The notes under the pieces: model-generated
What the model was told of the DNA's origin: nothing
What the model saw: only the letters and a program-made list of their open reading frames with translations
Databases searched by the model: none
Translations under genes and position numbers: made by a program
Shown here: piece after piece, positions 2,331 through 59,306 of the stretch
Position numbering within the stretch: position 1 is the stretch's first letter
Layout of the letters: each line of letters opens with the position of its first letter
Assembly: GCA_964585475.1 (NCBI GenBank)
Contig: CAZPDF010000001.1
Location: 1,441-65,440 of the forward strand
Direction of reading: 5' to 3'
From: an uncultured Candidatus Saccharibacteria bacterium
GTDB lineage: Bacteria; Patescibacteriota; Minisyncoccia; Sungbacterales; HO2-52-23
DNA: 64,000 bases

Positions 2331-2434
2331 TTTTTTCCCGATTTGTCCAAAATTTCGATTCAATTTGAAGAAGAAATTTTGGCAACAAATCGCAATCCCG
2401 TTCAAAACGGAGGCGAGAGGATTTGAACCTCTGA

Positions 2435-2548
2435 GGGGATTTCGGTTGCCTTCTCGGCAAACCCCAGGGCCGACTTTTGTAAAACGTTCGCAAGGCGCAC
2501 TTAAATAAAGTAGTCGGCCCGCGAAACGATCGGTAATCGTTTCGCCCA
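2435..2548 (-). repeat. three-hairpin structured element, copy 1 (in the variable region of the outer tRNA-Ser)
   Basis: Minus strand reads TGGGCGAAACGATTACCGATCGTTTCGC-GGGCCGACT...TGCGAACGT...AGTCGGCCC-TGGGGTTTGCCGAGAAGGCAACCGAAATCCCC. It shares the blocks TGGGCGAAA, TTTCGCGGG, TGCGAACGT, CCCTGGG, TTTGCCGA and GAAGGCAA with copy 2. Confidence 0.65.
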
Positions 2549-2583
2549 GCCGGTTTCTTGCCCCGCACTAAAATTTGGATTTT

Positions 2584-2670
2584 CGGAAGCGGGAGGATTC
2601 GAACCTCCGATACGGTTTCCCGTATAACGGTTTTCGAGACCGTCCCATTCAACCACTCTGGCACGCTTCC
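2584..2670 (-). tRNA. tRNA-Ser(CGA)
   Basis: Hand-folded cloverleaf: GGAAGCG-TG-CCAGAGTGGTTGAATGGG-ACGGT-CTCGAAA-ACCGT-TATACGGGAAACCGTATC-GGAGGTTCGAATCCTCC-CGCTTCC-G. It has a long variable arm. No CCA is encoded. Confidence 0.85.
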
Positions 2671-2751
2671 AAATTTTTAGTGCGGGGTCGAGACCGGCGC
2701 TTTAGACCACTCAGCCACGCCTCCGTTTTGTCCGGGACGAGACCGTCCCAT

Positions 2752-2848
2752 TGTTTTGCCTTCGTCGGCAAAACCCAGGGAAATTTTTTACGTTCGCACG
2801 GCTCCGCCGGCTCGCTAAATTTCCCGCGAAAGTCTATAGCTTTCGCCC
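2752..2848 (-). repeat. three-hairpin structured element, copy 2 (in the D loop of a truncated tRNA-Ser-like fragment)
   Basis: Minus strand reads GCCAGAGTGG-[GCGAAAGCTATAGACTTTCGC-GGGAAATTT...GTGCGAACGTAAAAAATTTCCC-TGGGTTTTGCCGACGAAGGCAAAACA]-ATGGGACGGTCTCG. The flanks match the D arm and anticodon stem of the intact tRNA-Ser (GCCAGAGTGGTTGAATGGGACGGTCTCG). Confidence 0.65.
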
Positions 2849-2862
2849 ACTCTGGCATCCCG

Positions 2863-2920
2863 CCAAATTTTTAGTGCGGGGTCGAGACCGGCGCTTTCAA
2901 TCGGACTCAGCCACCCCACC
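2863..2920 (-). other. orphan tRNA-Ser-like 5' half plus helix arm
   Basis: Minus strand reads GGTGGGG-TG-GCTGAGTCCGATTGAAAGC-G-CCGGT-CTCGA-CCCCGCACTAAAAATTTGG. This is the same layout as the 5' part of the outer Ser gene at 2688..2724, but no matching second arm follows it. Confidence 0.45.
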
Positions 2921-2935
2921 CCAAGGCGCTAGCTC

Positions 2936-3938: not shown

Positions 3939-4036
3939 TGCTTAACCTCGTCTGTAGTGATCTAGCCCATTCGTTGCATATAGGGGGACTTAAGTCAAGT
4001 TTTCTAAAACATTCTGTTTTCCACAGTTTTGGGAAA

Positions 4037-4142
4037 CCCCGCCCCTACTCTACTGCGGAATTCTTACCCTTACTACAAGGATACTGCAGCTTGACCCTTG
4101 TCTTTAATAATTCAACTACGAGGTAGAGTAGGGGGAGCGGGG
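4037..4142. repeat. CCCCGC-terminated long palindromic element
   Basis: Left arm is ccccgcccctactctac (4037..4053). Right arm is gtagagtagggggagcgggg (4123..4142). Intergenic between two minus-strand genes. Confidence 0.6.
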
Positions 4143-4164
4143 TAAACAAAATGGACCAGTATTT

Positions 4165-43080: not shown

Positions 43081-43095
43081 ATTACTATTTAGGTG

Positions 43096-43209
43096 GCCCA
43101 CGCACTAATTTCGTAAAGATGTTTATCTTATTGCGGTTAAACATTCGTGGTATCGCCTCCGGCTTACCTAGAGGCCAATAAATACTTATTGCTAAAATTA
43201 GTGCGGGGC
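43096..43209. repeat. CCCCGC-terminated long palindromic element
   Basis: Arms are gcccacgcactaattt / aaattagtgcggggc with one mismatch. The interior contains tcgcctccggctt, identical to 13 nt of the outer tRNA-like 3' end at 28737..28749. Confidence 0.6.
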
Positions 43210-43267
43210 ATAAGTTTTGTATCCAAAATTTCTTCGCTTAAGGGCTTTAAATTTTGGACAAAGCCTT

Positions 43268-44512
43268 ATGGATCACGAGGAAGCAAAAAAGCCAACCAAA
43301 TTTTTCGGACTTTCCCGGAACGTAATCTCCATGGGCGCGGTGAGTTTTTTAAACGATCTTTCCTCGGACATGATTTTTCCTTTTATTCCGATTTTTCTCA
43401 CAACGGTCCTTGGTGCCAGCGCTACATTTATCGGACTCATAGAGGGGATCGCGGATGCCACCGCCAGCATTTTGAAAATAGTTTCCGGCCGCCTCTCGGA
43501 TAAATGGAGGATTAGAAAACCATTTGCGGTTTTTGGCTATAGCTTGTCGGCGGCAGCAAAGCCCATTTTAGCTTTGGCTTCCGCACCCTGGCACGTTTTG
43601 GCAGTGCGGTTTTTGGATCGAGTGGGCAAAGGTACGCGCGACGCTCCGCGAGACGCGCTCCTTTCACTCTCGGCGGAGAAGCGGCATATCGGCCGTGCAT
43701 TCGGGTTCCACCGCGGAGCTGATACTTTAGGGGCGGCGCTCGGACCGCTGATCGCCTTTGCCGTTTTGCCATTTCTTGGAGGTGAGAGCGAGTCGGGGTT
43801 TCGCAATCTTTTTCTTCTCTCATTTGTAGCGAGCTTTTTTGCGGTACTTATTCTTAAGTTTTCGGTCCGTGAAGTTCGTAATAATATCGATGGCAAAGAA
43901 CCGCTTTTTCCGCCGAAATTTAGATTTAAGTATCTCGGCGTACCCTTTCTTATTTTCCTCGCTGCGGCAACTATTTTTTCTCTGGGAAAGGCCTCGGAGG
44001 CGTTTTTGCTACTCCGCGCGCAGGGACTGGGCGTTGCGATAATGCTTCTTCCGATAATTTATTTTGTGTATAACATCACTTTTGCTCTTTTCTCCACTCC
44101 TGCCGGTATGCTCTCGGATAAAATTGGGCACCGCAATACTTTTATGATCGGGATGCTTATTTTTTCCGGGACTTATTTTTTGTTCGCCCAAGCCACCTCG
44201 TCTCTTGCCATGTGGATTCTTTTCGCTGTCTACGGGTTTTATAGCGCATTTACCGAGGGAGTGGGGCGCGCCATAGTAGCGGATCTTGTGGAGGAAAAAT
44301 TCCGAGCAACCGCCTACGGAATGTACAGCGCCTTCACCGGTTTTGCGCTTCTGCCGGCAAGTCTGGTTTTCGGCATTTTGTGGGATCGCTTCGGGCCCAG
44401 CGTTTCATTCCAGTACGGCGCAATCCTCGGCCTTATCGCGTTCGTAATATTTCTTTTCCTGCGTTTGAAAAATCATCAGAAAGAGATGAATGCCGCATCA
44501 ACACGAAGCTAA
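43268..44512 (+). CDS. MFS transporter
   Basis: ORF track gives 43217..44512. I trimmed the start to the Met after the palindromic element. It has about 12 TM helices and the motif-A-like SGRLSDKWRIRKP. Confidence 0.8.
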   Translation: MDHEEAKKPTKFFGLSRNVISMGAVSFLNDLSSDMIFPFIPIFLTTVLGASATFIGLIEGIADATASILKIVSGRLSDKWRIRKPFAVFGYSLSAAAKPILALASAPWHVLAVRFLDRVGKGTRDAPRDALLSLSAEKRHIGRAFGFHRGADTLGAALGPLIAFAVLPFLGGESESGFRNLFLLSFVASFFAVLILKFSVREVRNNIDGKEPLFPPKFRFKYLGVPFLIFLAAATIFSLGKASEAFLLLRAQGLGVAIMLLPIIYFVYNITFALFSTPAGMLSDKIGHRNTFMIGMLIFSGTYFLFAQATSSLAMWILFAVYGFYSAFTEGVGRAIVADLVEEKFRATAYGMYSAFTGFALLPASLVFGILWDRFGPSVSFQYGAILGLIAFVIFLFLRLKNHQKEMNAASTRS

Positions 44513-45438: not shown

Positions 45439-45726
45439 ATGAAAAGAAAGTTTGATTATGCACTAGTTCTTGTTGAATGCCTCAAGAAAAGAAGCGGTGA
45501 ATTTATAGGCGTAAAGACGGTCGCGAAAGAATTTCGGCTTCCCGAAGCATACCTTGAGAAAGTGGCACAGGAGCTCAAGCGCGCCGGATGGCTTGAGGGG
45601 CGGAGAGGTGCTGGCGGAGGATATCGGCTTTTAAAGGATCCCGCCGCTGTTTCAGTGGAGAACCTGATCAATTTCTACGAGCCCGTTTACTCGTTTTGCC
45701 CGCTTCTTAGGGAGCTAAAAAAATGA
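45439..45726 (+). CDS. Rrf2-family transcriptional regulator (short, IscR/NsrR-like)
   Basis: FDYALVLVECLKKRSGEFIGVKTVAKEFRLPEAYLEKVAQELKRAGWLEGRRGAGGGYRL. It overlaps nifS by 4 nt. Confidence 0.8.
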   Translation: MKRKFDYALVLVECLKKRSGEFIGVKTVAKEFRLPEAYLEKVAQELKRAGWLEGRRGAGGGYRLLKDPAAVSVENLINFYEPVYSFCPLLRELKK

Positions 45727-47042
45727 GAGAAGTATACTTAGACCATGCCGCTACTACTTATTTGGACCCACGGGTAAAGGAAGCGATGGAGCCATATTGG
45801 ACGGAGGACTTTGGTAATCCATCAAGCTTGTATAGAGGCGGGAGGCGTGCCAAAGAAGCGTTGGATAAAGCGCGCGAAACCATTGCGCAGATTTTGAATT
45901 GCAAGCCCGAGGAGCTGATTTTTACAGGAGGAGGAACTGAGGCAATAAACTTGGCGATCTTTGGATCGGCTAAGCAATACGGACTCCCGTTCCAGACTAA
46001 GTCTGGAACGGATGGCAGACTTAGTCCGGAACGCAGGGGTAATCTCGTAACTTCAAAAATTGAGCATCATGCCGTCCTGCATAGCATGGAGGCCTTGGGC
46101 AAGGAGGGGTTTGAAATAACCCATCTTGATGTTGACGAATATGGGCTGGTCAACCCGGAGCATGTGAGAGAAGCAATCCGGCAGGACACGATTTTAGTTT
46201 CTATAATGTATGCGAATAACGAGATCGGGACGATCGAGCCGATCGAGGAAATAGGAAAAGTGATTAAAGAAGCGCGCGAGGCGCGAAAGAAGGAAGGAAA
46301 CGCGACTCCGATTTTTTTCCATACCGATGCTTGCCAGGCCGCAGGGGCACTGGATTTAGACGTCCAGAAACTAGGGCTAGATCTACTTGCGATCAACGGC
46401 TCAAAAATTTACGGGCCAAAAGGGGTGGGCTGCCTTTTTATCCGCAGAGGAGTGCGCGTTAAGCCCCTGATTTACGGCGGAGGACAGGAGAATAATTTGC
46501 GGTCCGGCACAGAAAATGTTCCGGGAATTATCGGTTTTGCGAAGGCCCTGGAACTTGCGCACATGGAACGAGAAAAAGAAAACGCTCGTCTCAGTGAATT
46601 GCGGGATTATCTTCTGGTACGGCTTCTAAAAGAAATTCCCAAAACGGTTCTCAACGGCCATCCAGCGAAGCGGCTTCCCAATAACATAAATGTGTCAGTG
46701 CTCGACATTGAAGGGGAGGCGGTTATTCTTTATCTGGATGCCAAAGGAATTTATGTTTCCACCGGATCCGCCTGCGCATCCACCAGCCTTGATCCCTCGC
46801 ATGTCATTTTGGCGATAGGCCGGCCGTATGAATACGCCCACGCGTCGCTGCGCTTTACGCTTGGTAGGAGAACTGCCAAAGAAGATCTGGATTATGTTAT
46901 GGAAGTTTTTCCTGGAGTTGTGGAGAAATTACGAAAAATTAGTCCCCTGCGAATAGAAGTAGGACAGATGACGGTGAGTCATCCGGAAGCATTTGCGGGG
47001 CAAGGGTCGAAAGTGAAAGTTGGAGGGAAGAATTATAAGTAA
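45723..47042 (+). CDS. nifS: cysteine desulfurase (NifS/IscS type)
   Basis: LDHAATT, FTGGGTEAINLAI, HHAVL, HTDACQAAG, INGSKIYGPKGVG (the PLP lysine), RSGTENVPGI and the active-site STGSACAS. Confidence 0.9.
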   Translation: MREVYLDHAATTYLDPRVKEAMEPYWTEDFGNPSSLYRGGRRAKEALDKARETIAQILNCKPEELIFTGGGTEAINLAIFGSAKQYGLPFQTKSGTDGRLSPERRGNLVTSKIEHHAVLHSMEALGKEGFEITHLDVDEYGLVNPEHVREAIRQDTILVSIMYANNEIGTIEPIEEIGKVIKEAREARKKEGNATPIFFHTDACQAAGALDLDVQKLGLDLLAINGSKIYGPKGVGCLFIRRGVRVKPLIYGGGQENNLRSGTENVPGIIGFAKALELAHMEREKENARLSELRDYLLVRLLKEIPKTVLNGHPAKRLPNNINVSVLDIEGEAVILYLDAKGIYVSTGSACASTSLDPSHVILAIGRPYEYAHASLRFTLGRRTAKEDLDYVMEVFPGVVEKLRKISPLRIEVGQMTVSHPEAFAGQGSKVKVGGKNYK

Positions 47043-47102
47043 AGGGCTTTCTCTAAATTTTCGAGTTCGTAGAACGAAGAAAATTTAGCTAGAAAACCTT
47101 TA

Positions 47103-47370
47103 CCGAGCACTCAATTTATTCTGCTATGTATTATGTCTATGTGATTCGTAATCGGAAGTCGCGGGAAACCTATATCGGTTATTCCGACGACTTGAAACGG
47201 AGGTTACGAGAACACAAGGATAAAAATCCGGAGCTTCTGTATTACGAAGCATACAAAAGCGAGAAGGATGCAAGGATACGGGAGAAAAAGCTGAAGCAGC
47301 GGGGGACAAAGCATCCGCTGGCTCAAAGAAAGATTGAAGTACAGTTTAGCAGAATAAATTGAGTGCTCGG
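47103..47370 (+). mobile_element. GIY-YIG gene cassette bounded by perfect 23-bp inverted repeats
   Basis: ccgagcactcaatttattctgct (47103..47125) and agcagaataaattgagtgctcgg (47348..47370) are exact reverse complements. The ATG follows the left repeat directly, and the stop codon lies inside the right repeat. Confidence 0.6.
47126..47362 (+). CDS. GIY-YIG nuclease superfamily small protein
   Basis: 78 aa. MYYVYVIRNRKSRETYIGYSDDLKRRLREH contains the GIY-(10)-YIG motif plus the conserved Arg and Glu. Confidence 0.8.
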   Translation: MYYVYVIRNRKSRETYIGYSDDLKRRLREHKDKNPELLYYEAYKSEKDARIREKKLKQRGTKHPLAQRKIEVQFSRIN

Positions 47371-47465
47371 TGCTCAATGCTGTTACCAAATTTTCTTCAC
47401 CGTTGGTTCGAAAATTTGGACATCATTGGCAAATAATAAAAAAGAGGGGCATGTCGCCCCTGAGT

Positions 47466-47720
47466 TTAGTGGAGATAGGATCCGAGGTCTTTCTCGCGGA
47501 AATGCTTCGTGAGGTCGCTCTCCGACGTGATGACAAAATTGGCGAGGCGCGGATTTTTTTCCTTGATTTTCACCCCCGCAACGGCAGCAGCGATTTCTTC
47601 GACGGCTTCCTCAAGTTCTCGCCACGCCCGCTCGAATCTTTCCTGAAGCATTTCGCGTGTGAAAGAATTCGGAAGCGGCGGTTTATTCTTCCAGATGACG
47701 TACTCGTACGGGGCCGTCAC
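47466..47720 (-). CDS. hypothetical protein (downstream gene of a two-gene minus-strand pair)
   Basis: 84-aa ORF whose start lies 1 nt from the stop of 47722..48129. Its composition is normal, unlike the Arg-rich + strand ORFs covering it. Confidence 0.5.
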   Translation of the reverse strand: MTAPYEYVIWKNKPPLPNSFTREMLQERFERAWRELEEAVEEIAAAVAGVKIKEKNPRLANFVITSESDLTKHFREKDLGSYLH

Positions 47721-47721
47721 G

Positions 47722-48129
47722 TTAATCCGGTATCAGATGCGTCCGATGCTCGCCATCGCAGCAGGGGCGCACGCACGTTTCCGTACCCGGCGTATCTTCC
47801 GGATCTTTTTCAGGAATCAATTGTGCCGAAGCAACTTCTCGCTCGTCATCCAGAAGCCCGACGTGAGTAAGGTACATAGAAAGAATGGTTGCGGAAGGCA
47901 TACCGGCTCGGAGTCCTTTACAGTCGATACTTTCTGGAATGTGGCTGTGCAGGGCGAAGAGTGTGCTCTTGGGCATGGTAATTCTGAAAGTTTCTGTCTC
48001 CGCCTCCTTCACTACTTCTATGCCGAGACGCTGTTTTCCCGAAAGATCCGGGAAAAAAGGAACGAACTGCAGCTTGAATTCGTCTTTCCTGCGGAGAGTC
48101 ACCCTGACCCCTACTTTTGCGGTATCCAT
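47722..48129 (-). CDS. hypothetical protein (upstream gene of the pair)
   Basis: ORF track gives 47722..48153. I prefer the Met at 48129 (MDTAKVGVRV...), which is preceded by AAGGAGGGACTG. A TTGACT-17-TATCCT promoter-like sequence lies upstream on the minus strand. Confidence 0.5.
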   Translation of the reverse strand: MDTAKVGVRVTLRRKDEFKLQFVPFFPDLSGKQRLGIEVVKEAETETFRITMPKSTLFALHSHIPESIDCKGLRAGMPSATILSMYLTHVGLLDDEREVASAQLIPEKDPEDTPGTETCVRPCCDGEHRTHLIPD

Positions 48130-48218
48130 CAGTCCCTCCTTGGCGAGAAACAAGCTTATAAAAGGATACCATGTAAGCTATAGAAAGTCAATTTTATTTA
48201 TAACAAACAAATAAAGAT

Positions 48219-48911
48219 ATGAGTCCAGAAGAAAAAGGAACATCACCGGTGACGAAGCCGAAAGTCGATACGAAGGCAGATGTGATAAACCAATTCACCG
48301 GAGAAAAGTGGTACTACACGGATATCGTAAAGGAGCATTTTTTTAATCCCCGGAATTTGATGTTGGAAGATCCGGACGAGTCGCAGTATGACGCGGTGGG
48401 AATGGTCGGGAGCGCTGCCTGCGGAGACATGATGAAGATGTGGCTGAAGATTGAGCCGGAAACGGAAAAAGTAAAAGAAATGAAGTGGCGTACTTTTGGT
48501 TGCGGCAGTGCGATTGCCGCGACCTCGATGTTTAGTGTGATGGTCACGGAAAATGGAGGCGTTCCGATCGGTGAGGCATTAAAAATAAAGCCCCAGCATA
48601 TTATGGAGCGCCTCGGCGGCTTGCCCAATCGTAAAATCCATTGCTCGGTTCTGGCTGACAAAGCTTTCCGCAAAGCCGCGAACGAATATTTCCGCAGGAC
48701 AGGACAAGTCGGTCGTATTATAATAGAAGGAGCGCGTGTGATTGACCCTAAACTTAACATGACGGATAAGGATATTGAGGAGGCGGTTTTAGAAGGCGCG
48801 ACAGATTTAGAATCTGTGCAGAAAAAATTAAAAATCGGGATCGGGTCCCCGGAGATCATTCCGGAAGTCGAGCAACTTATCAGATTTTATAAAGAGAAAT
48901 ATTATGGTTAG
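48219..48911 (+). CDS. nifU: NifU/IscU-type Fe-S cluster scaffold protein
   Basis: The three scaffold cysteines are in GSAACGDMMKMW, FGCGSAIA and KIHCSVLA. A C-terminal extension is present. Confidence 0.88.
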   Translation: MSPEEKGTSPVTKPKVDTKADVINQFTGEKWYYTDIVKEHFFNPRNLMLEDPDESQYDAVGMVGSAACGDMMKMWLKIEPETEKVKEMKWRTFGCGSAIAATSMFSVMVTENGGVPIGEALKIKPQHIMERLGGLPNRKIHCSVLADKAFRKAANEYFRRTGQVGRIIIEGARVIDPKLNMTDKDIEEAVLEGATDLESVQKKLKIGIGSPEIIPEVEQLIRFYKEKYYG

Positions 48912-51384: not shown

Positions 51385-51477
51385 TAAGCCGACGATCTCT
51401 GACCGTTCGGTTTTTTATTTGTTTGTCCAAATTTTTGAGCAAGATGTGCGATGAAAATTTGGTTCACAAACAAATAA

Positions 51478-51625
51478 CCCCTCACCAATTTTGCCAAGTA
51501 TTACAGAATGGGGTCGATGGGTATACCCAATCGAGATCCACCCGCGAAGCGCGCGTGCCGAATAGGCACATCCCTAATGGGCGAAGCGTTTCGCTCTCTA
51601 CTACTTTGTAAAATTGGTGACGGGG
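51478..51625. repeat. CCCCGC-family long palindromic element (shares a core with 56430..56575)
   Basis: Arms are cccctcaccaattttgc / gtaaaattggtgacgggg. The interior contains cgcgcgtgccgaataggcacatccctaatgggcgaagcg, the reverse complement of the core in the clpB leader copy. Confidence 0.65.
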
Positions 51626-51639
51626 TTGATTTTAGAATC

Positions 51640-54358: not shown

Positions 54359-54415
54359 AGTTCCCCACGTTTTTCTGGAACTGGATATAGTATAAATATG
54401 ATGTCGGCTTTGGTC

Positions 54416-54560
54416 AACCCCGCACCTTTTATGCGCTAGGCCACCTCGCGAGCACCGGATTCTTATACCTATTCGGCACTTACTCTATACAGAGTTAATC
54501 TCGGCATACAGTGTACCTGTGAGGTGGCTGGTGCGATGCGGCGCATAAAAGGTGCGGGGT
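54416..54560. repeat. CCCCGC-terminated long palindromic element
   Basis: Arms are aaccccgcaccttttatgcgc / gcgcataaaaggtgcggggt. Second-tier arms are ggccacctc / gaggtggc. It is flanked on both sides by tcaa. Confidence 0.7.
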
Positions 54561-54634
54561 CAACTAATCCCTTGGTTTGACGAAAATTCATTGTAGGTTT
54601 ACTTTTGAAGCAAGACCCTTTGGAGTAAAAGAAG

Positions 54635-54850: not shown

Positions 54851-55106
54851 TCTGGCGAGTTTCCCGGACTGCCGTAGCAAATTTTCCTTCACTTAGGCCC
54901 TTAGCAGATAGTTAAACTTTGGACAGGCAACTCGCTTGTCTTTTTGTATTTTGTTTCCTGCGATATCCACACGCCTTCCAAGAGCCGGTTGAGGCAATGG
55001 TTGGAAACGCTGGCGTGGGTTCCGAAACGCGCCGAAGCAAGAATCCCGCAGGGGCCTTAAAGTTTTCCAGAGACAGGCAGTCGAAATCTGGCTGCCTTTT
55101 TATTTA

Positions 55107-55247
55107 CCCCGTTACAAGAAAGCCACGGGTGTAAGCCCGTGGATGAATTGCGCCGTTCCTGCCAGCCTTAAGATAAAATGCCACGAGCGTAAGCTCGTGG
55201 TCGCCTTGTAACGGGGTTTACCGGGAAACCCCGCACGAAGTGCGGGG
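55107..55247 (+). ncRNA. candidate structured RNA / cis-regulatory leader
   Basis: A 12-bp stem (ccccgttacaag / cttgtaacgggg) encloses two near-identical hairpins: ccacgggtgtaagcccgtgg (55123..55142) and ccacgagcgtaagctcgtgg (55181..55200). They differ by a compensatory G:C to A:T change. The hairpin ccccgcac-gaa-gtgcgggg follows at 55229..55247. ggggttt-accggg-aaacccc offers a mutually exclusive pairing. Confidence 0.4.
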
Positions 55248-56411: not shown

Positions 56412-56429
56412 AGAGGTATTAGTAGCCTT

Positions 56430-56575
56430 CCCGCCCTAATTTTGCTAGATAAAACAAGCGCAAGACGCTTCGCCCGTTGAGGGATGTGCCTATCCGGCAC
56501 GCGCGTCTTGTTAGGATTTCCGGGTGTGTACTTTGCTGGGGTTTATACTTTTTGATAGGGCAAAATTAGAGCGGG
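56430..56575. repeat. CCCCGC-family long palindromic element inside the clpB leader
   Basis: Arms are cccgccctaattttgc / gcaaaattagagcggg with one mismatch. The core is acgcttcgcccgttgagggatgtgcctatccggcacgcgcg, enclosed by the stem caagacgc / gcgtcttg. Confidence 0.65.
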
Positions 56576-56630
56576 ATGGTCATAATTTCAGCGAAAATTT
56601 GTTCGCTGAAACTCCAAATTTTCGGAAATT

Positions 56631-59306
56631 ATGCCACCTTTTCAACAATTCACCATCAAAGCCCAAGAGGTCTTGAAAAAAGCGCATGACCTTGCGCTGG
56701 AAAGATCACATCATCAAATTGATGTGCTGCATTTGCTTACCGGATTGATCTTGCAGGAGGAGGGGACGGTGGACGCGATTTTGGAAAAACTTGAGATAGA
56801 TGTTTCCATGATTGCTGACCGGCTTCTGGAAACTCTGGACTCGATGCCTCGCGGGGCAATGATCGCGACCCCTCTCGGGCAGGTCTATTTGACGCAGGAT
56901 TTGGCAAAAGTGATCGAGCAGGCGCATAGGGAAGCGGCGCAATTGAAAGATGAATTTATTTCAACCGAGCATCTCTTCTTGGCATTGGTTGAGGTACCTT
57001 CCAGGGCCAAAGAAATGCTTGAGCGGGAGGGCCTGAATAAAGAGATGATTTTACGCGCTTTAGCCGAGCTTCGAGGCGGGCAGAGGATTACCGACCCCGA
57101 ACCAGAAACTAAGTATAATGTCATTGAAAAATACGCGCGTAACTTGACGCGCCTGGCGCGTCAGGAAAAACTCGACCCCGTGATTGGGCGCGAGAACGAA
57201 ATCAGGAGAGTCATGGAAGTTTTATCCCGCCGCACGAAGAATAACCCTGTCCTTATCGGAGAAGCGGGGGTGGGGAAAACAGCCATTGCCGAGGGATTGG
57301 CGCAGAGGATAGTTTCCGGCGACGTGCCGGAAACCCTGAAGGATAAGGACCTTATTTCCGTGGATCTTGCCGCAATTGTAGCGGGCACCAAATACAGGGG
57401 AGAATTTGAGGATCGGGTGAAAGCGATTTTACGCGAGATCGAGAGAGCGCAGGGTAAATACATAATTTTTATTGACGAGCTGCATACGATTGTCGGCGCC
57501 GGGGCCGCGGAAGGCGCGATTGACGCCTCCAACATGTTAAAACCGGCGTTAGCGCGCGGAGAACTCCATGCTATTGGCGCTACCACCCTCAAAGAATATC
57601 AGCGCTATATCGAGCGCGATCCGGCCCTCGCTCGCCGCTTCCAGCCGGTATACGTGGATGAGCCAAGCGTGGAAGACACCGTTGCGATACTGCGGGGGCT
57701 CAAACCAAAATATGAGGCGCATCACGGGATTAAGATCACCGATGGCGCTATTGTGGCTGCCGCCAATCTTTCGTCGCGCTACATAACTGATCGTTTTCTG
57801 CCGGATAAAGCGGTGGACCTAGTTGACGAGGCATCATCTTCCCTGCGTCTTGAGATGGACAGTCTACCCAAAGATCTGGATGACACGCGGAGGAGAATTA
57901 TGAAGCTTGAAATTGAAAAGGAGGCCATCAAAAAGGAGATTGACAGAAAAAGTAAGGAGCGGTTGAAAAAACTTGTGAGTGAAATTGCGGAGCTGCAAGG
58001 TGGCACGCAAGCCATGGAAGAAGCGTGGAAGCAGGAGAAAGAAACCATTGTCGGGATCCGCGCCATGAAAAAAGAGTTGGATACTGCGCGTCAGGAATCG
58101 GATATTGCCGAGAGAGCGGGAGAATTCGGGAAAGTAGCCGAACTTCGCTACGGAAAAATTCCGCAGACCGAGACCAAGCTTGACGAGGCCGAAAAACTTC
58201 TTAAGAAACTTCAGAATTCTCGGCATCTTGTGCGCGGGGAAGTTACGGAGGAAGATATCGGTTCCGTGGTCGCCCGCTGGACCGGAATTCCGGTAACGAA
58301 GATTCTTGAAACCGAAGCCGTGCGCTTGACGAAGATTGAGGAAGAGCTTAAAAAGCGAGTCATCGGGCAGGGAGAGGCCGTTGAGAAAATTGCGAATGCG
58401 GTGCGCCGCTCAAGAGCCGGCATTGCCGAGGAAAATCGTCCCATCGGCTCCTTCATATTCTTGGGCCCCACCGGAGTAGGAAAAACCGAGCTTGCCAAAA
58501 CCCTGGCTGAGTTTTTATTTTCGGACGAGAAGGCCTTGATTCGCGTGGATATGTCCGAATACATGGAGCGACACACGGTTTCCAAATTCATTGGCTCTCC
58601 TCCCGGATACGTAGGGTATGAGGAGGGGGGCCAATTGACCGAGCTTGTGAAGCATCGGCCCTATTCGGTAATACTTTTTGATGAGATAGAAAAAGCGCAT
58701 CCGGAGGTCTTCAATGTTCTTTTGCAGATTCTGGATAACGGGCGTTTGACCGATGCCAAAGGCCGCATGATTAATTTCAAAAACACGATAATTATAATGA
58801 CTTCCAATATCGGCGGGGAGTATGCGCAAGAGATGGGGAAAATAGGATTTGCGAGCGGAGACGAGGATACCAGGGAACGGAAAGAAGGCGACATGAAAGA
58901 TAAGATAAGAAAGGCCCTTGAGCGTCATTTCCGGCCTGAGTTTTTGAATCGCCTGGATGAAATAATAATTTTCTCCTCGCTTACGCCGGAAGTCATCCAA
59001 AAAATTGTTGAAATACAACTCGAGCGCGTGGTTAAGCGTATGGCCGGGCGCGAAATATCTGTTTCATTCACCGGAGAGGTCAAGAAATTTATCGCGGAGA
59101 AGGGTTACGACCCGACTTACGGAGCGCGGCCCCTGAAGCGCGCGATCCAGACGCATATTCTTGATATGCTCGCGCAGGAAATTATTGCGGGGAAAATCGG
59201 GGAAGGGGATGCGGTTTTGGTTGACGCCAAAGACGGGAAGGCGGTTTTTGGGAAAGGAGTTAAAAGAGTTGGAGGGAAAAGAGCGGTGGTAGTGGCGAAA
59301 AGTTAA
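56631..59306 (+). CDS. clpB: ATP-dependent chaperone ClpB
   Basis: 891 aa with a Clp_N repeat, NBD1 ([23 protein letters not shown]), a long coiled-coil middle domain, NBD2 ([26 protein letters not shown]) and [10 protein letters not shown]. Confidence 0.95.

Follow-up and report, generated by a model that had tools for sequence, protein, structure and literature searches.

Within the window (the whole 64,000-nt stretch of DNA analysed here, from an uncultured Candidatus Saccharibacteria bacterium), the Fe-S operon is interrupted between nifS and nifU by ~1.2 kb, raising the question of what occupies this gap. The Rrf2, nifS, and nifU identities given in an initial annotation of the locus were confirmed by Pfam (Table 1), and its premise that nifS and nifU are normally adjacent was borne out, with nifU starting ≤~200 nt after nifS in most of 68 related two-gene loci from a genome scan in which the nearest NifS is only ~59% identical to the NifS of the window. 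Relatives usually keep the two genes side by side, and the junction is split by an insert as described. The gap consists of two unrelated parts (47040-47432 and 47433-48218). The best explanation, held with moderate confidence, is that of two independent insertions: a copy of a hairpin repeat element with a GIY-YIG gene in the loop of its central palindrome, and a separate orphan two-gene unit.

Table 1. Features of the nifS-nifU junction (positions in the window)
Feature	Coordinates	Strand	Remarks
Rrf2-family regulator	45439..45726	+	Pfam PF02082, E 2.8e-18; first gene of the Fe-S operon
nifS-type cysteine desulfurase	45723..47042	+	Pfam Aminotran_5, E 4.9e-72
nifS stop codon (TAA)	47040-47042	+	Forms the initial three bases of the conserved element; element alignments start at TAAAGGGC
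Whole composite element	47040..47432	+	Left hairpin domain, inverted repeat with GIY-YIG gene in loop, right hairpin domain
Left domain	47044..47098	+	Outer stem ~47048-47052 with 47091-47095, enclosing hairpin B
Hairpin B arms	47053-47062; 47079-47088	+	CTAAATTTTC; GAAAATTTAG; inverted-repeat scan
Left repeat arm	47102..47126	+	ACCGAGCACTCAATTTATTCTGCTA; last base is the A of the start codon; no Shine-Dalgarno
GIY-YIG nuclease gene, single-domain	47126..47362	+	78 aa as read; Pfam PF01541
Right repeat arm	47347..47371	+	Holds the present and ancestral stop codons
Right domain	47372..47432	+	Long stem ~47375-47384 with 47420-47429, enclosing hairpin E; ends in conserved ATTGGCA
Hairpin E arms	47386-47395; 47410-47419	+	CCAAATTTTC; GAAAATTTGG; inverted-repeat scan
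Orphan two-gene unit	47433-48218	-	ORF135 and ORF84 with own signals
Terminator-like hairpin and T-run	47436..47461	-	Closes the two-gene unit; starts 4 nt past the right end of the element
ORF84	47466..47720	-	84 aa; GTG start, 1 nt after the ORF135 stop
ORF135	47722..48129	-	135 aa from ATG; acidic tail with Cys/His
Ribosome-binding site	48141-48134	-	AAGGAGGG; 4 nt before the ORF135 ATG
Promoter-like site	48191-48163	-	TTGACT-17-TATCCT with TG; promoter scan
nifU-type scaffold gene	48219..48911	+	Pfam NifU_N, E 9.4e-35; separated from nifS by the insert

Anatomy of the repeat element

The element is built of three consecutive DNA hairpin domains, and in gene-bearing copies a gene of ~75 aa lies exactly in the loop of the central hairpin. 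The unit is ~390 bp long, spans a whole spacer from upstream stop to downstream start, and was matched by a covariance model (R1) at 47040-47135 (54 bits) and 47327-47433 (44 bits). The framing of the GIY-YIG gene by a repeat, as proposed initially, holds for the core of the element, but the cassette is larger than had been thought, with two more hairpin domains and with siblings that lack an ORF. The inverted repeat is indeed perfect, but measures 25 bp, 2 nt more than the 23 bp first given; the ATG overlaps the final base of the left arm and the stop codon (TGA, 47360-47362) falls in the right arm, as originally read. An exact search placed the 23-mer at only two sites in 64 kb, both at the element (0 matches expected in shuffled sequence, even allowing 3 mismatches), and the suggested search for further copies of the repeat or of the GIY-YIG gene returned none within the window.

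The inverted repeat is a trait of the whole protein family and no local oddity. Among 81 copies (80 metagenome loci and the window copy), 68 had a perfect repeat, ≥11 nt long, abutting the start codon, with a median stem length of 18 bp. The arms vary from locus to locus (ACCGAGCAC, ACCCAGCAC, ACCCCGCAC, CCCTCACC, and others) and always match within a locus, the family stems comprising 1118 Watson-Crick pairs against 14 mismatches, of which only 3 are G-T. This near absence of G-T pairs argues for a constraint at the level of DNA, with which a role in RNA remains compatible; G-U and A-C mismatches are both rare and about equal in number, so the test favours selection on DNA only weakly.

The flanking hairpin domains are real structures and covary strongly. 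Compensatory changes were present in 13 of 17 pairs of helices 1-2 (left domain) and 21 of 23 pairs of helices 4-6 (right domain) of the consensus structure, and across all 52 consensus pairs 95.1% of positions were paired, compared to 71.4% in shuffles and ~40% when the partners were slid, with changes on both sides in 43 pairs. Outside the 25-bp repeat that encloses the gene, the hairpins at 47053-47088 and 47386-47419 are in direct orientation to each other, and this layout is kept family-wide. The ends of the unit are sharp: the window copy resembles non-orthologous copies from TAAAGGGCTTT up to ATTGGCA (alignments of 23 loci and of L163/L164), and the window, L163 (after secE), and L164 are alike only within TAAAGGGC...ATTGGCA(TG).

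The GIY-YIG protein

The presence of a 78-aa GIY-YIG gene in the gap was confirmed by a Pfam match to PF01541 (score 42.2 bits, cut-off 22.6, E 1e-10). The window protein belongs with 455 homologues of ~75 aa, most of them 73-78 aa long and carrying only PF01541-type domains. Eighteen positions are invariant across 27 aligned family sequences, including Y3, Y5, Y16, G18, R26, H30, and E53, all of which are present in the window protein. The C-terminus of the window protein deviates from the same alignment: the G-run at 47301-47305 holds five G where L163 has four, the ancestral frame resumes at 47307, and it ends at a TAA (47355-47357) for a 76-aa product. The frame-corrected product reads QSIRWLKERLKYSLAE up to that stop and shares 88% identity with P0002 over its full length. 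As a result of this +1 frameshift the annotated C-terminus and stop differ from the ancestral ones, and the one-base insertion replaces the conserved C-terminal helix. The window copy is most likely an inactive relic; otherwise the extra G, which sits in a homopolymer, would be an assembly error.

The initial annotation had likened the gene and its repeats to a compact selfish or homing-type cassette. Compact behaviour of a mobile or selfish type fits the family, with its family-wide repeat, unrelated junctions, and decayed copies, but a classical homing endonuclease or intron does not. The closest solved relative of the protein is the UPF0213 protein BH0048 (E 7e-4, matched over only ~30 residues), and its N-terminal 30 residues weakly match the TIGR01453 group I intron endonucleases (E 1.5e-4, below cut-off) as well as phage homing endonuclease families. 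These matches speak for a homing endonuclease housed in a self-splicing intron; a related proposal is a housekeeping gene of the UPF0213 type with the repeat as a plain terminator. Either is very improbable. No group I or group II intron model matches the element, Intron_gpI not even at E up to 10, the element lies between a stop and a start codon and not inside a gene, and the protein is a catalytic domain alone, without a separate DNA-binding domain. The candidate of a group I intron or classical homing endonuclease was rejected on account of the absent ribozyme and the intergenic position, while a terminator would not enclose a whole gene, carry its start and stop codons, or covary over hundreds of loci.

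Distribution and insertion sites

The repeat-element family is widespread in Patescibacteria (candidate phyla radiation, CPR) and was previously undescribed. Gene-bearing copies occupy many different operon junctions, with 71 singleton clusters of flanking proteins. The closest relative, P0002 (88% amino acid identity and, by eye, ~90% nucleotide identity), is sited after secE and not nifS, and the P0007 copy precedes a T4SS pilin gene. Gene-bearing copies lie within 23S rRNA at five of the 80 loci and within RNase P RNA at one, and seven copies lie directly 5' of tRNA genes. At five tRNA-adjacent copies (L040, L054, L068, L069, and L079) there are direct duplications of 7-15 nt of the tRNA 5' end; no target-site duplication was evident at the window copy or the operon-junction copies. 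Among the genes next to gene-bearing copies, 44 of 49 upstream and 40 of 41 downstream share the orientation of the GIY-YIG gene.

Copies without an ORF are also present. A covariance model search of the window recovered at least five, at 60824-61004, at 43086-43270 (minus strand), at 2342-2389, near 51414, and near 56518, which use CCCCGC-type arms. Two full ones were recovered in other contigs, L058 (2227-2464, 118 bits) and L022 (1771-1978, 103 bits), each beside a gene-bearing copy. The L022 copy is on the minus strand, and the minus-strand copy at 43086-43270 lies between plus-strand genes. Short solo hairpins of the repeat type numbered 19 in the 80 loci, and hairpins of the CCAAAATTT type 8 in 64 kb. 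Descent of ORF-less copies by deletion was considered and set aside, since alignment of the L058 copy to a gene-bearing copy revealed no convincing gene remnant in the loop.

No near-identical pair at different sites was found among the 80 loci, the pairs >98% identical all having at least partly homologous flanks, so these loci give no sign of recent mobility. No presence/absence polymorphism of the element was found in a comparison whose nearest NifS is ~59% identical. The only hint of population heterogeneity at the site is a Logan contig (6.5 kb, NifS identical) that breaks off where the repeat has its outer edge, at position 47104 of the window. Only two weak relatives occurred in 2.9 million viral contigs, indicating that the family is not phage-borne.

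One alternative gives these units a host role. The three-hairpin units might serve the host as spacers, processing elements, or recombination signals, and the nuclease might be a host single-strand DNA nuclease, for example in the control of incoming DNA as proposed for Neisseria SsnA, its gene merely housed in one unit. Such domestication, argued by the authors of the Ssn work for their own system (PMC11893778), would agree with the absence of near-identical copies at different sites, with the conservation of the protein, with the excess of ORF-less over gene-bearing copies in the window, which is large, and with the conservation of some sites across diverged genomes (an upstream gene is common to 8 loci, at 33-98% identity). 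It sits poorly with the spread of one element lineage through unrelated junctions, with the copies inside rRNA and RNase P RNA genes, and with the frameshifted or truncated copies (the window, L023, and L026), and is judged rather unlikely. The family was also not found in 652 kb of NifS loci, other Patescibacteria included, and such a patchy distribution is a better fit to a parasite than to a core function.

The near-constant co-orientation with neighbouring genes, the start codon within a stem and without a Shine-Dalgarno, the strong covariation, and the copies in 23S and RNase P RNA, which need removal or tolerance at the RNA level, could also suit a primarily RNA element resembling an intervening sequence, in which RNase III excises the nuclease mRNA or controls its translation and complementarity reflects selection on RNA. 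As a complete account this is improbable, because G-U pairs are so rare in the stems (3 against 1118) and ORF-less copies occur in both orientations. By our own tally of per-pair counts, wobble pairs made up ~14 of ~770 paired cells, and A-C mismatches were about as frequent, leaving no strand asymmetry. Rfam searches, run for the region with E values up to 10 and for the whole window, returned only chance matches of microRNA or snoRNA type and tRNAs, and gave no match to the element or to the other repeat-bounded elements in the window. An RNA function is compatible with the mobile repeat element as a second layer, not as a replacement for it.

The minus-strand gene pair

The second part of the gap holds the two minus-strand ORFs, the ribosome-binding site, and the TTGACT-17-TATCCT site, all present as described in the initial annotation. 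The intrinsic terminator-like site that closes the pair, called at 47461-47445, is a feature absent from that description. Both ORFs carry a coding signal, with codon usage like that of real genes: ORF84 (codon score 0.25, within the range of host genes) and ORF135 (0.13) each had the best score of the six frames. The unit breaks a rule of the family, in which the right end of the element normally abuts a co-oriented start codon, and the pair is probably a separate unit inserted later between the right end of the element and the nifU start codon.

An addiction or defence-type module had been suggested for the pair. Two small genes 1 nt apart, with a promoter-like site, a ribosome-binding site, and a terminator-like site of their own, codon usage that indicates real genes, and a position next to an element of mobile type are in keeping with a toxin-antitoxin or defence pair. 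Neither protein had a family match in Pfam, NCBIfam, PADLOC, or PHROGs, however, and a homology search with ORF84 returned no homologue. ORF135 had a single weak homologue among 1.8 billion representatives (P0122, E 1e-6, 29% identity), whose gene stands alone with no partner gene after it, so the pair is not conserved at the one locus available for comparison. The structure prediction recommended for both proteins yielded nothing usable, the AlphaFold2 models computed without an alignment being of low confidence (pLDDT 47 for ORF135 and 60 for ORF84, the latter predicted to be mostly helical). The suggestion is accordingly rated improbable.

A possible mode of spread

By analogy with Ssn, a nuclease without a DNA-binding domain would recognise its own hairpins in single-stranded DNA and cut beside them. 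Repair or copying of the breaks would spread the hairpin elements, and sometimes the gene as well, with operon junctions and hairpin tips within RNA genes as the destinations. The GIY-YIG gene has neither a promoter nor a ribosome-binding site of its own, from which we infer that it depends on read-through, and expression of the nuclease would come from transcription of the host operon. Once transcribed, the long perfect stem would mask the start codon and would also be a substrate for a double-strand-specific RNase; together these properties could account for the tolerance of insertions in rRNA, RNase P RNA, and operons.

A more far-reaching proposal is that the units are autonomous mobile elements of a new class, from which many non-autonomous copies derive. 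A 75-aa GIY-YIG domain would be the sole mobilising enzyme, acting on hairpins in single-stranded DNA and inserting in hairpin loops and operon junctions, and the perfect stem would take over the role that a ribozyme has for intron-borne homing genes, rendering insertions in rRNA, RNase P RNA, tRNA flanks, and operons harmless. This is put forward tentatively, as possible and not as the expected outcome. If true, it would account for the GIY-YIG insertions of non-intron type in CPR rRNA genes and could supply the mobilising enzyme for the small intergenic repeats of these reduced genomes.

Significance

Small intergenic palindromic repeats are common in bacteria, and the enzymes that mobilise them are mostly not known. 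To our knowledge, the only gene-repeat pairs described are REP/RAYT and, since 2025, NTS/Ssn, to which the element family would add a third, one that is very compact and resides in the reduced genomes of Patescibacteria. Its anatomy is clear: the gene occupies a hairpin loop, the three-hairpin scaffold is fixed, some copies lack the ORF, and essential RNA genes are among the insertion sites. The family also offers a concrete hypothesis for unexplained non-intron insertions in CPR rRNA genes. Natural pairs of nuclease and hairpin are possible candidates for single-strand DNA tools, as for Ssn. For annotation, many intergenic spacers and signals of split operons in these genomes are repeat elements, and for assembly, short contigs that break at such repeats are to be expected.

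Comparison with known systems

Homing GIY-YIG enzymes such as I-TevI and Seg, free-standing or intron-borne, resemble the element described here in catalytic fold, in a selfish life cycle that leaves decayed copies, and in a translation start buried in RNA structure. They differ in having at least 200 aa with a separate DNA-binding domain and in recognising long double-stranded targets in conserved genes, and we know of no bracketing palindrome or gene-less repeat family for enzymes of this type. Correia/NEMIS and ERIC-type repeats are likewise small intergenic elements with terminal inverted repeats and are co-transcribed with neighbouring genes, their RNA stems being substrates of RNase III. 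They have no sequence similarity to the element, and neither a mobilising enzyme nor an autonomous nuclease-bearing copy is known to us for them.

The inserts at rRNA helix tips known as intervening sequences, and those in CPR rRNA genes, are similarly bounded by inverted repeats and sometimes carry an ORF. All GIY-YIG proteins in the CPR rRNA survey of Tsurumaki et al. (2024, PMC11270868) lay in inserts resembling neither group I nor group II introns, and GIY-YIG genes in CPR rRNA were judged there to be rare and outside homing; the five 23S insertions among the 80 loci are exactly such cases. The inverted repeat, the three-hairpin scaffold, and the copies at operon junctions are not described in that study.

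The nearest known system is the Ssn/NTS pair and, by analogy, REP/RAYT, any membership of the Ssn group being putative. REP/REPIN-RAYT systems also combine one nuclease gene with flanking inverted copies of a short palindromic repeat that is otherwise dispersed intergenically, singly or in clusters, and their action is likewise presumed to be on single-stranded DNA hairpins. RAYTs, however, are HUH tyrosine enzymes related to IS200/IS605 and not GIY-YIG proteins, and REPs do not form a three-hairpin unit holding the gene in a hairpin loop.

Ssn nucleases with their NTS/SRM hairpin repeats (Chenal et al. 2025, Nat Commun, PMC11893778) set a precedent for a single-domain GIY-YIG nuclease whose gene has hairpin repeats on both sides, a layout that its authors liken to an insertion sequence. 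Differences from Ssn are several: the gene here lies inside the loop of one palindrome, whereas an Ssn gene lies only between two complete hairpins; a fixed three-domain scaffold of ~150 nt takes up the spacer from stop to start codon; some copies lie within rRNA and RNase P RNA genes; the host is a member of the Patescibacteria, which go unmentioned in PMC11893778; and the protein has 75 aa compared to 94 aa. The published degenerate SRM motif (HGTCWY..RNCYNB) had 0 matches on both strands of the 64 kb. The likenesses are that both systems have a single-domain GIY-YIG protein of <100 aa without a DNA-binding domain and a gene bracketed by hairpin-forming repeats (here the 25-bp repeat together with the directly oriented hairpins B and E). 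Ssn genomes also hold many gene-less hairpin copies in intergenic DNA; the 64 kb examined here have at least five further scaffold copies and the 8 CCAAAATTT-type hairpins, but no other copy of the exact 23-mer.

A GIY-YIG gene at the nifS-nifU junction

The finding at the nifS-nifU junction is real and exceeds a single odd cassette: it belongs to a so far undescribed family of hairpin repeats in Patescibacteria that has a minimal GIY-YIG nuclease embedded in it. As read from the sequence in the initial annotation, the flanking genes were identified by Pfam as Rrf2, a class-V aminotransferase (NifS) and NifU_N, and the intervening ORF as GIY-YIG (E 1e-10). For comparison, 80 NifS genome loci were used, the closest NifS proteins being only ~57–59% identical (one-genome-per-species data). 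Adjacency is the rule in these loci, with nifU within ~200 nt 3′ of nifS in the great majority of the 68 that also hold NifU, and the 1.2-kb gap in the window is therefore an interruption of the operon, as had been proposed. Exceptions to adjacency included other inserted genes (L100 and L103) and two Woesearchaeota genomes (L086 and L094) in which the match to NifU picks up again only at residue 68 or 94, suggesting inteins within NifU. The junction also carries an opposite-strand insert in a Saccharibacteria genome (L101), where five small ORFs, several of them paralogous hydrophobic proteins with ...YICDKC ends, separate nifS from nifU.

The perfect inverted repeat reported around the GIY-YIG ORF was present, at 25 nt rather than 23 nt (ACCGAGCACTCAATTTATTCTGCTA and its complement), with the left arm ending on the A of the ATG and the TGA located within the right arm. 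Further copies of the 23-mer, for which a search had been proposed, were absent from the window beyond the two arms, and shuffled sequence gave zero matches even at three mismatches. A metagenomic contig with an identical NifS (L001; Logan SRR8863434) ends at window position 47104, 2–3 nt inside the left arm, which may be due to strains differing at the edge of the element, or to nothing more than low coverage.

The window protein has 455 relatives, nearly all 73–78 aa, many of them on very short contigs and with named sources among the Patescibacteria, Sungbacteria, Terrybacteria, and Spechtbacterales; viral contigs held only two weak relatives. The catalytic positions do not vary among 27 aligned members, and the window protein diverges from the family past QRG because of an extra G in a homopolymer run (five G vs four in a relative, DNA alignment). 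The next frame, from 47307, reads QSIRWLKERLKYSLAE followed by a stop, in agreement with the family consensus, and the frame-corrected product (76 aa) is 88% identical over its full length to the closest relative (P0002). The window copy is either newly inactivated or a homopolymer mis-assembly, and decay is also seen as disrupted GIY-YIG genes in L023 and L026.

Coordinates of features in the window and in comparison loci
Feature	Sequence	Position	Strand	Detail
GIY-YIG element	window	47040–47432		
Inverted-repeat arms	window	47102–47126, 47347–47371		
GIY-YIG ORF	window	47126–47362		78 codons
G-run	window	47301–47305		
Terminator-like hairpin and T-run	window	47461–47445	-	
ORF84	window	47466–47720	-	GTG start
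ORF135	window	47722–48129	-	
Promoter-like TTGACT-17-TATCCT	window	48191–48163	-	
Gene-less hit, CCCCGC-type arms	window	60824–61004	+	45 bits
Gene-less hit, CCCCGC-type arms	window	43086–43270	-	35 bits
Gene-less hit, left domain only	window	2342–2389	+	33 bits
Gene-less hit	window	56518–56638	+	29.7 bits
Gene-less hit	window	51414–51549	+	26.7 bits
Repeat-bounded elements, CCCCGC-type arms	window	51414–51630, 56420–56638, 54405–54572, 55100–55222, 4030–4145		
Stretches with GCGCGTGCCGRATAGGCACATCCCT..GGGCGAAGCGT	window	51478–51624, 56426–56579		opposite strands
DnaA-box-like motif	window	60819–60827		
Apparent tRNA-Ser(CGA) nest	window	2340–2925	-	
Complete tRNA-Ser(CGA)	window	2583–2671		
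CCCCGCACTAAAATTT inverted repeats	window	2561–2576, 2672–2687		third copy 2866–2881
Outer 20-nt inverted repeat	window	2396–2415, 2718–2737		
Additional tRNA	window	16851–16922	-	Rfam, 42 bits
Complete gene-less unit	L058	2227–2464		118 bits
Complete gene-less unit	L022	1771–1978		103 bits
Group I intron	L049	708–938		Intron_gpI, 60.5 bits
Small ORFs between nifS and nifU	L101	5422–6524	-	
NifU gene, ~600 aa	L086	5176–6984		
NifU gene, ~600 aa	L094	5471–7246		

Conserved architecture of the element

Among 81 copies (the window and 80 metagenome loci encoding relatives of the GIY-YIG protein), 68 possess a perfect inverted repeat with arms of ≥11 nt. The left arm stops no more than a few bases from the start codon, the right arm reaches ~14–15 nt beyond the stop codon, and the median stem is 18 bp. 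Arm sequences vary by locus (ACCGAGCAC..., ACCCAGCAC..., ACCCCGCAC..., CCCTCACC..., CCCCACAC...), and within each locus the arms are always complementary (1118 Watson-Crick pairs vs 14 mismatches, three of them G-T). Start and stop codons are frequently within the stem, and a Shine-Dalgarno sequence is lacking.

Flanks were aligned for 23 loci whose neighbour genes are unrelated. Similarity started exactly at the stop codon of the upstream gene (TAAAGGGCTTTGTC...) and stopped at ...ATTGGCATG, the ATG of which is the start codon of the downstream gene; in the window, this sets the limits of the element at 47040–47432. Using 16 aligned units with the ORF interiors cut out, RNAalifold predicted three domains: a left stem around one hairpin, a central inverted repeat, and a long right stem around one or more hairpins. 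This structure is marked by covariation, with 95.1% of cells paired (500 shuffles, 71.4%, none reaching the real value; partners slid, 35–44%) and 43 of 52 pairs changed on both sides. Wobble pairs were again rare (~14 of ~770 paired cells; our tally of per-pair counts) and A-C mismatches about equally so, a pattern that we take to favour, not decisively, a constraint on DNA hairpins over RNA helices. No Rfam family matches the element.

Genomic sites of gene-bearing copies

The gene-bearing copies occupy diverse contexts, with flanking proteins forming 71 singleton clusters and few recurrent contexts. Neighbours are co-oriented with the gene (upstream, 44 of 49; downstream, 40 of 41) at median gaps of 65 nt (upstream) and 77 nt (downstream). 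Of the relatives of the window copy, the closest sits 3′ of secE and the next-closest 5′ of a T4SS pilin gene, and a three-way alignment has high identity inside TAAAGGGC...ATTGGCA and none beyond. Based on Rfam, copies also occur inside 23S rRNA genes (L049, L059, L060, L065, and L077), inside RNase P RNA (L042), and directly 5′ of tRNA genes (L040, L054, L068, L069, L070, L074, and L079), always in the orientation of the RNA gene, and at the tRNA genes the first 7–15 nt of the tRNA are duplicated left of the element. No pair of near-identical copies at unrelated sites was found in the 80 loci. GIY-YIG genes of L010 and L021 are 99% identical with an identical immediate flank, while the upstream gene, 120–700 nt off, is only 73% identical and L010 carries one extra 34-nt solo hairpin, suggesting recombination or transfer of a segment containing the element.

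In L049, the GIY-YIG insertion is followed ~200 nt further downstream by a group I intron, such that both insertion types occur in one 23S rRNA gene. A DnaA-box-like motif (TTATCCACA/TTATCCAC) directly adjoins several elements, including one in the window, and lies downstream of the element in L007, L008, L010, L015, L021, L022, L024, and L043, often followed by TTGACA; it is perhaps a motif that accompanies promoters in these genomes.

Gene-less copies

Searching with a covariance model built on the unit identified five gene-less hits in the window, not counting the GIY-YIG copy, which was hit as two halves; in the NifS loci of other lineages (652 kb) the model had zero hits. The two highest-scoring hits, at 60824 and 43086, carry an 89-nt insert in place of the gene in the central stem, are mutually homologous over 127 nt (common core, GTAAGCCGNAGGCGNTACC), and have their left 83 nt in common with the GIY-YIG copy. 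Hairpins of the CCAAAATTT type occur eight times in the 64 kb (loops of 14–18 nt, one of 30 nt), each beside a repeat-bounded element; the GIY-YIG gene lies between two of these hairpins, which are in direct orientation. Complete gene-less units are intergenic beside the gene-bearing copies of L058 and L022, with no clear gene remnant in their loops, and 19 solo short hairpins (ccGAGCACATAA-loop-TTATGTGCTCgg), frequently tandem, were found in the 80 loci.

Repeat-bounded elements with CCCCGC-type arms have interiors of 50–110 nt, and most adjoin a CCAAAATTT-type hairpin. None in the window has a match in Rfam. They could represent genes for small RNAs, or else cargo of the repeat family.

In the apparent nest of tRNA-Ser(CGA) genes, an outer tRNA-Ser-like gene is split (5′ half ending near 2689; 3′ end ...GGTTCAAATCCTCTCGCCTCC near 2405), and directly after its CGA anticodon comes a complete tRNA between CCCCGCACTAAAATTT repeats. 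The outer unit, itself within an inverted repeat, follows the CTCG of another partial tRNA. The arrangement looks like repeated rounds of insertion by a cassette that is bounded by repeats and carries a replacement for the disrupted gene. One additional tRNA is missing from the ARAGORN list.

The minus-strand ORFs

ORF135 and ORF84, in the same gap, are genuine open frames separated by 1 nt, and the signals first noted for them, a ribosome-binding site (AAGGAGGG) ahead of the first ATG and a promoter-like sequence, were found, together with a terminator-like hairpin. Codon-usage scores of both are the best of six frames and within the host-gene range. A search of 5.8 billion proteins returned only ORF135 itself, and 1.8 billion representatives gave one weak relative (P0122; 124 aa, 29% identity, E 1e-6), encoded alone between two opposite-strand genes. 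No relative of ORF84 was found, neither ORF has relatives at any other GIY-YIG locus, and single-sequence structure models of both were poor. The right end of the element normally adjoins a co-oriented start codon, and we therefore infer that the minus-strand unit was a later insertion that separated ATTGGCA from the nifU ATG. The suggestion of an addiction or defence module found no support, as Pfam, NCBIfam, PADLOC, and PHROGs gave no match for either ORF and P0122 has no partner.

Comparison with known systems

We infer a mechanism in which hairpin-directed cutting of single-stranded DNA would drive spread and the stem would render insertions harmless at the RNA level. The best solved relative of the window protein is a UPF0213 protein, with a match spanning only 30 residues. 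All GIY-YIG proteins of CPR rRNA insertions are reported to lie in insertions other than group I or group II introns, and they were placed outside homing (Tsurumaki et al. 2024, PMC11270868); our data supply an anatomy for these insertions and show that they make up the smaller part of a far more extensive family. Ssn proteins are single-domain GIY-YIG proteins (~94 aa) that bind NTS/SRM hairpin repeats of single-stranded DNA and cleave next to them, with repeats on both sides of ssn genes and numbering in the hundreds, and their authors see a likeness to insertion sequences and REP/RAYT (Chenal et al. 2025, PMC11893778). Patescibacteria are not mentioned in that study, and the published SRM motif does not occur in the window. 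The present family has in common with Ssn/NTS the logic of a nuclease gene and hairpin repeats, but differs in the gene being within the loop of one palindrome, a scaffold of three fixed domains, copies within RNA genes, and another host phylum. Overall, we rate the family as a variant of the Ssn/NTS and REP/RAYT type of system.
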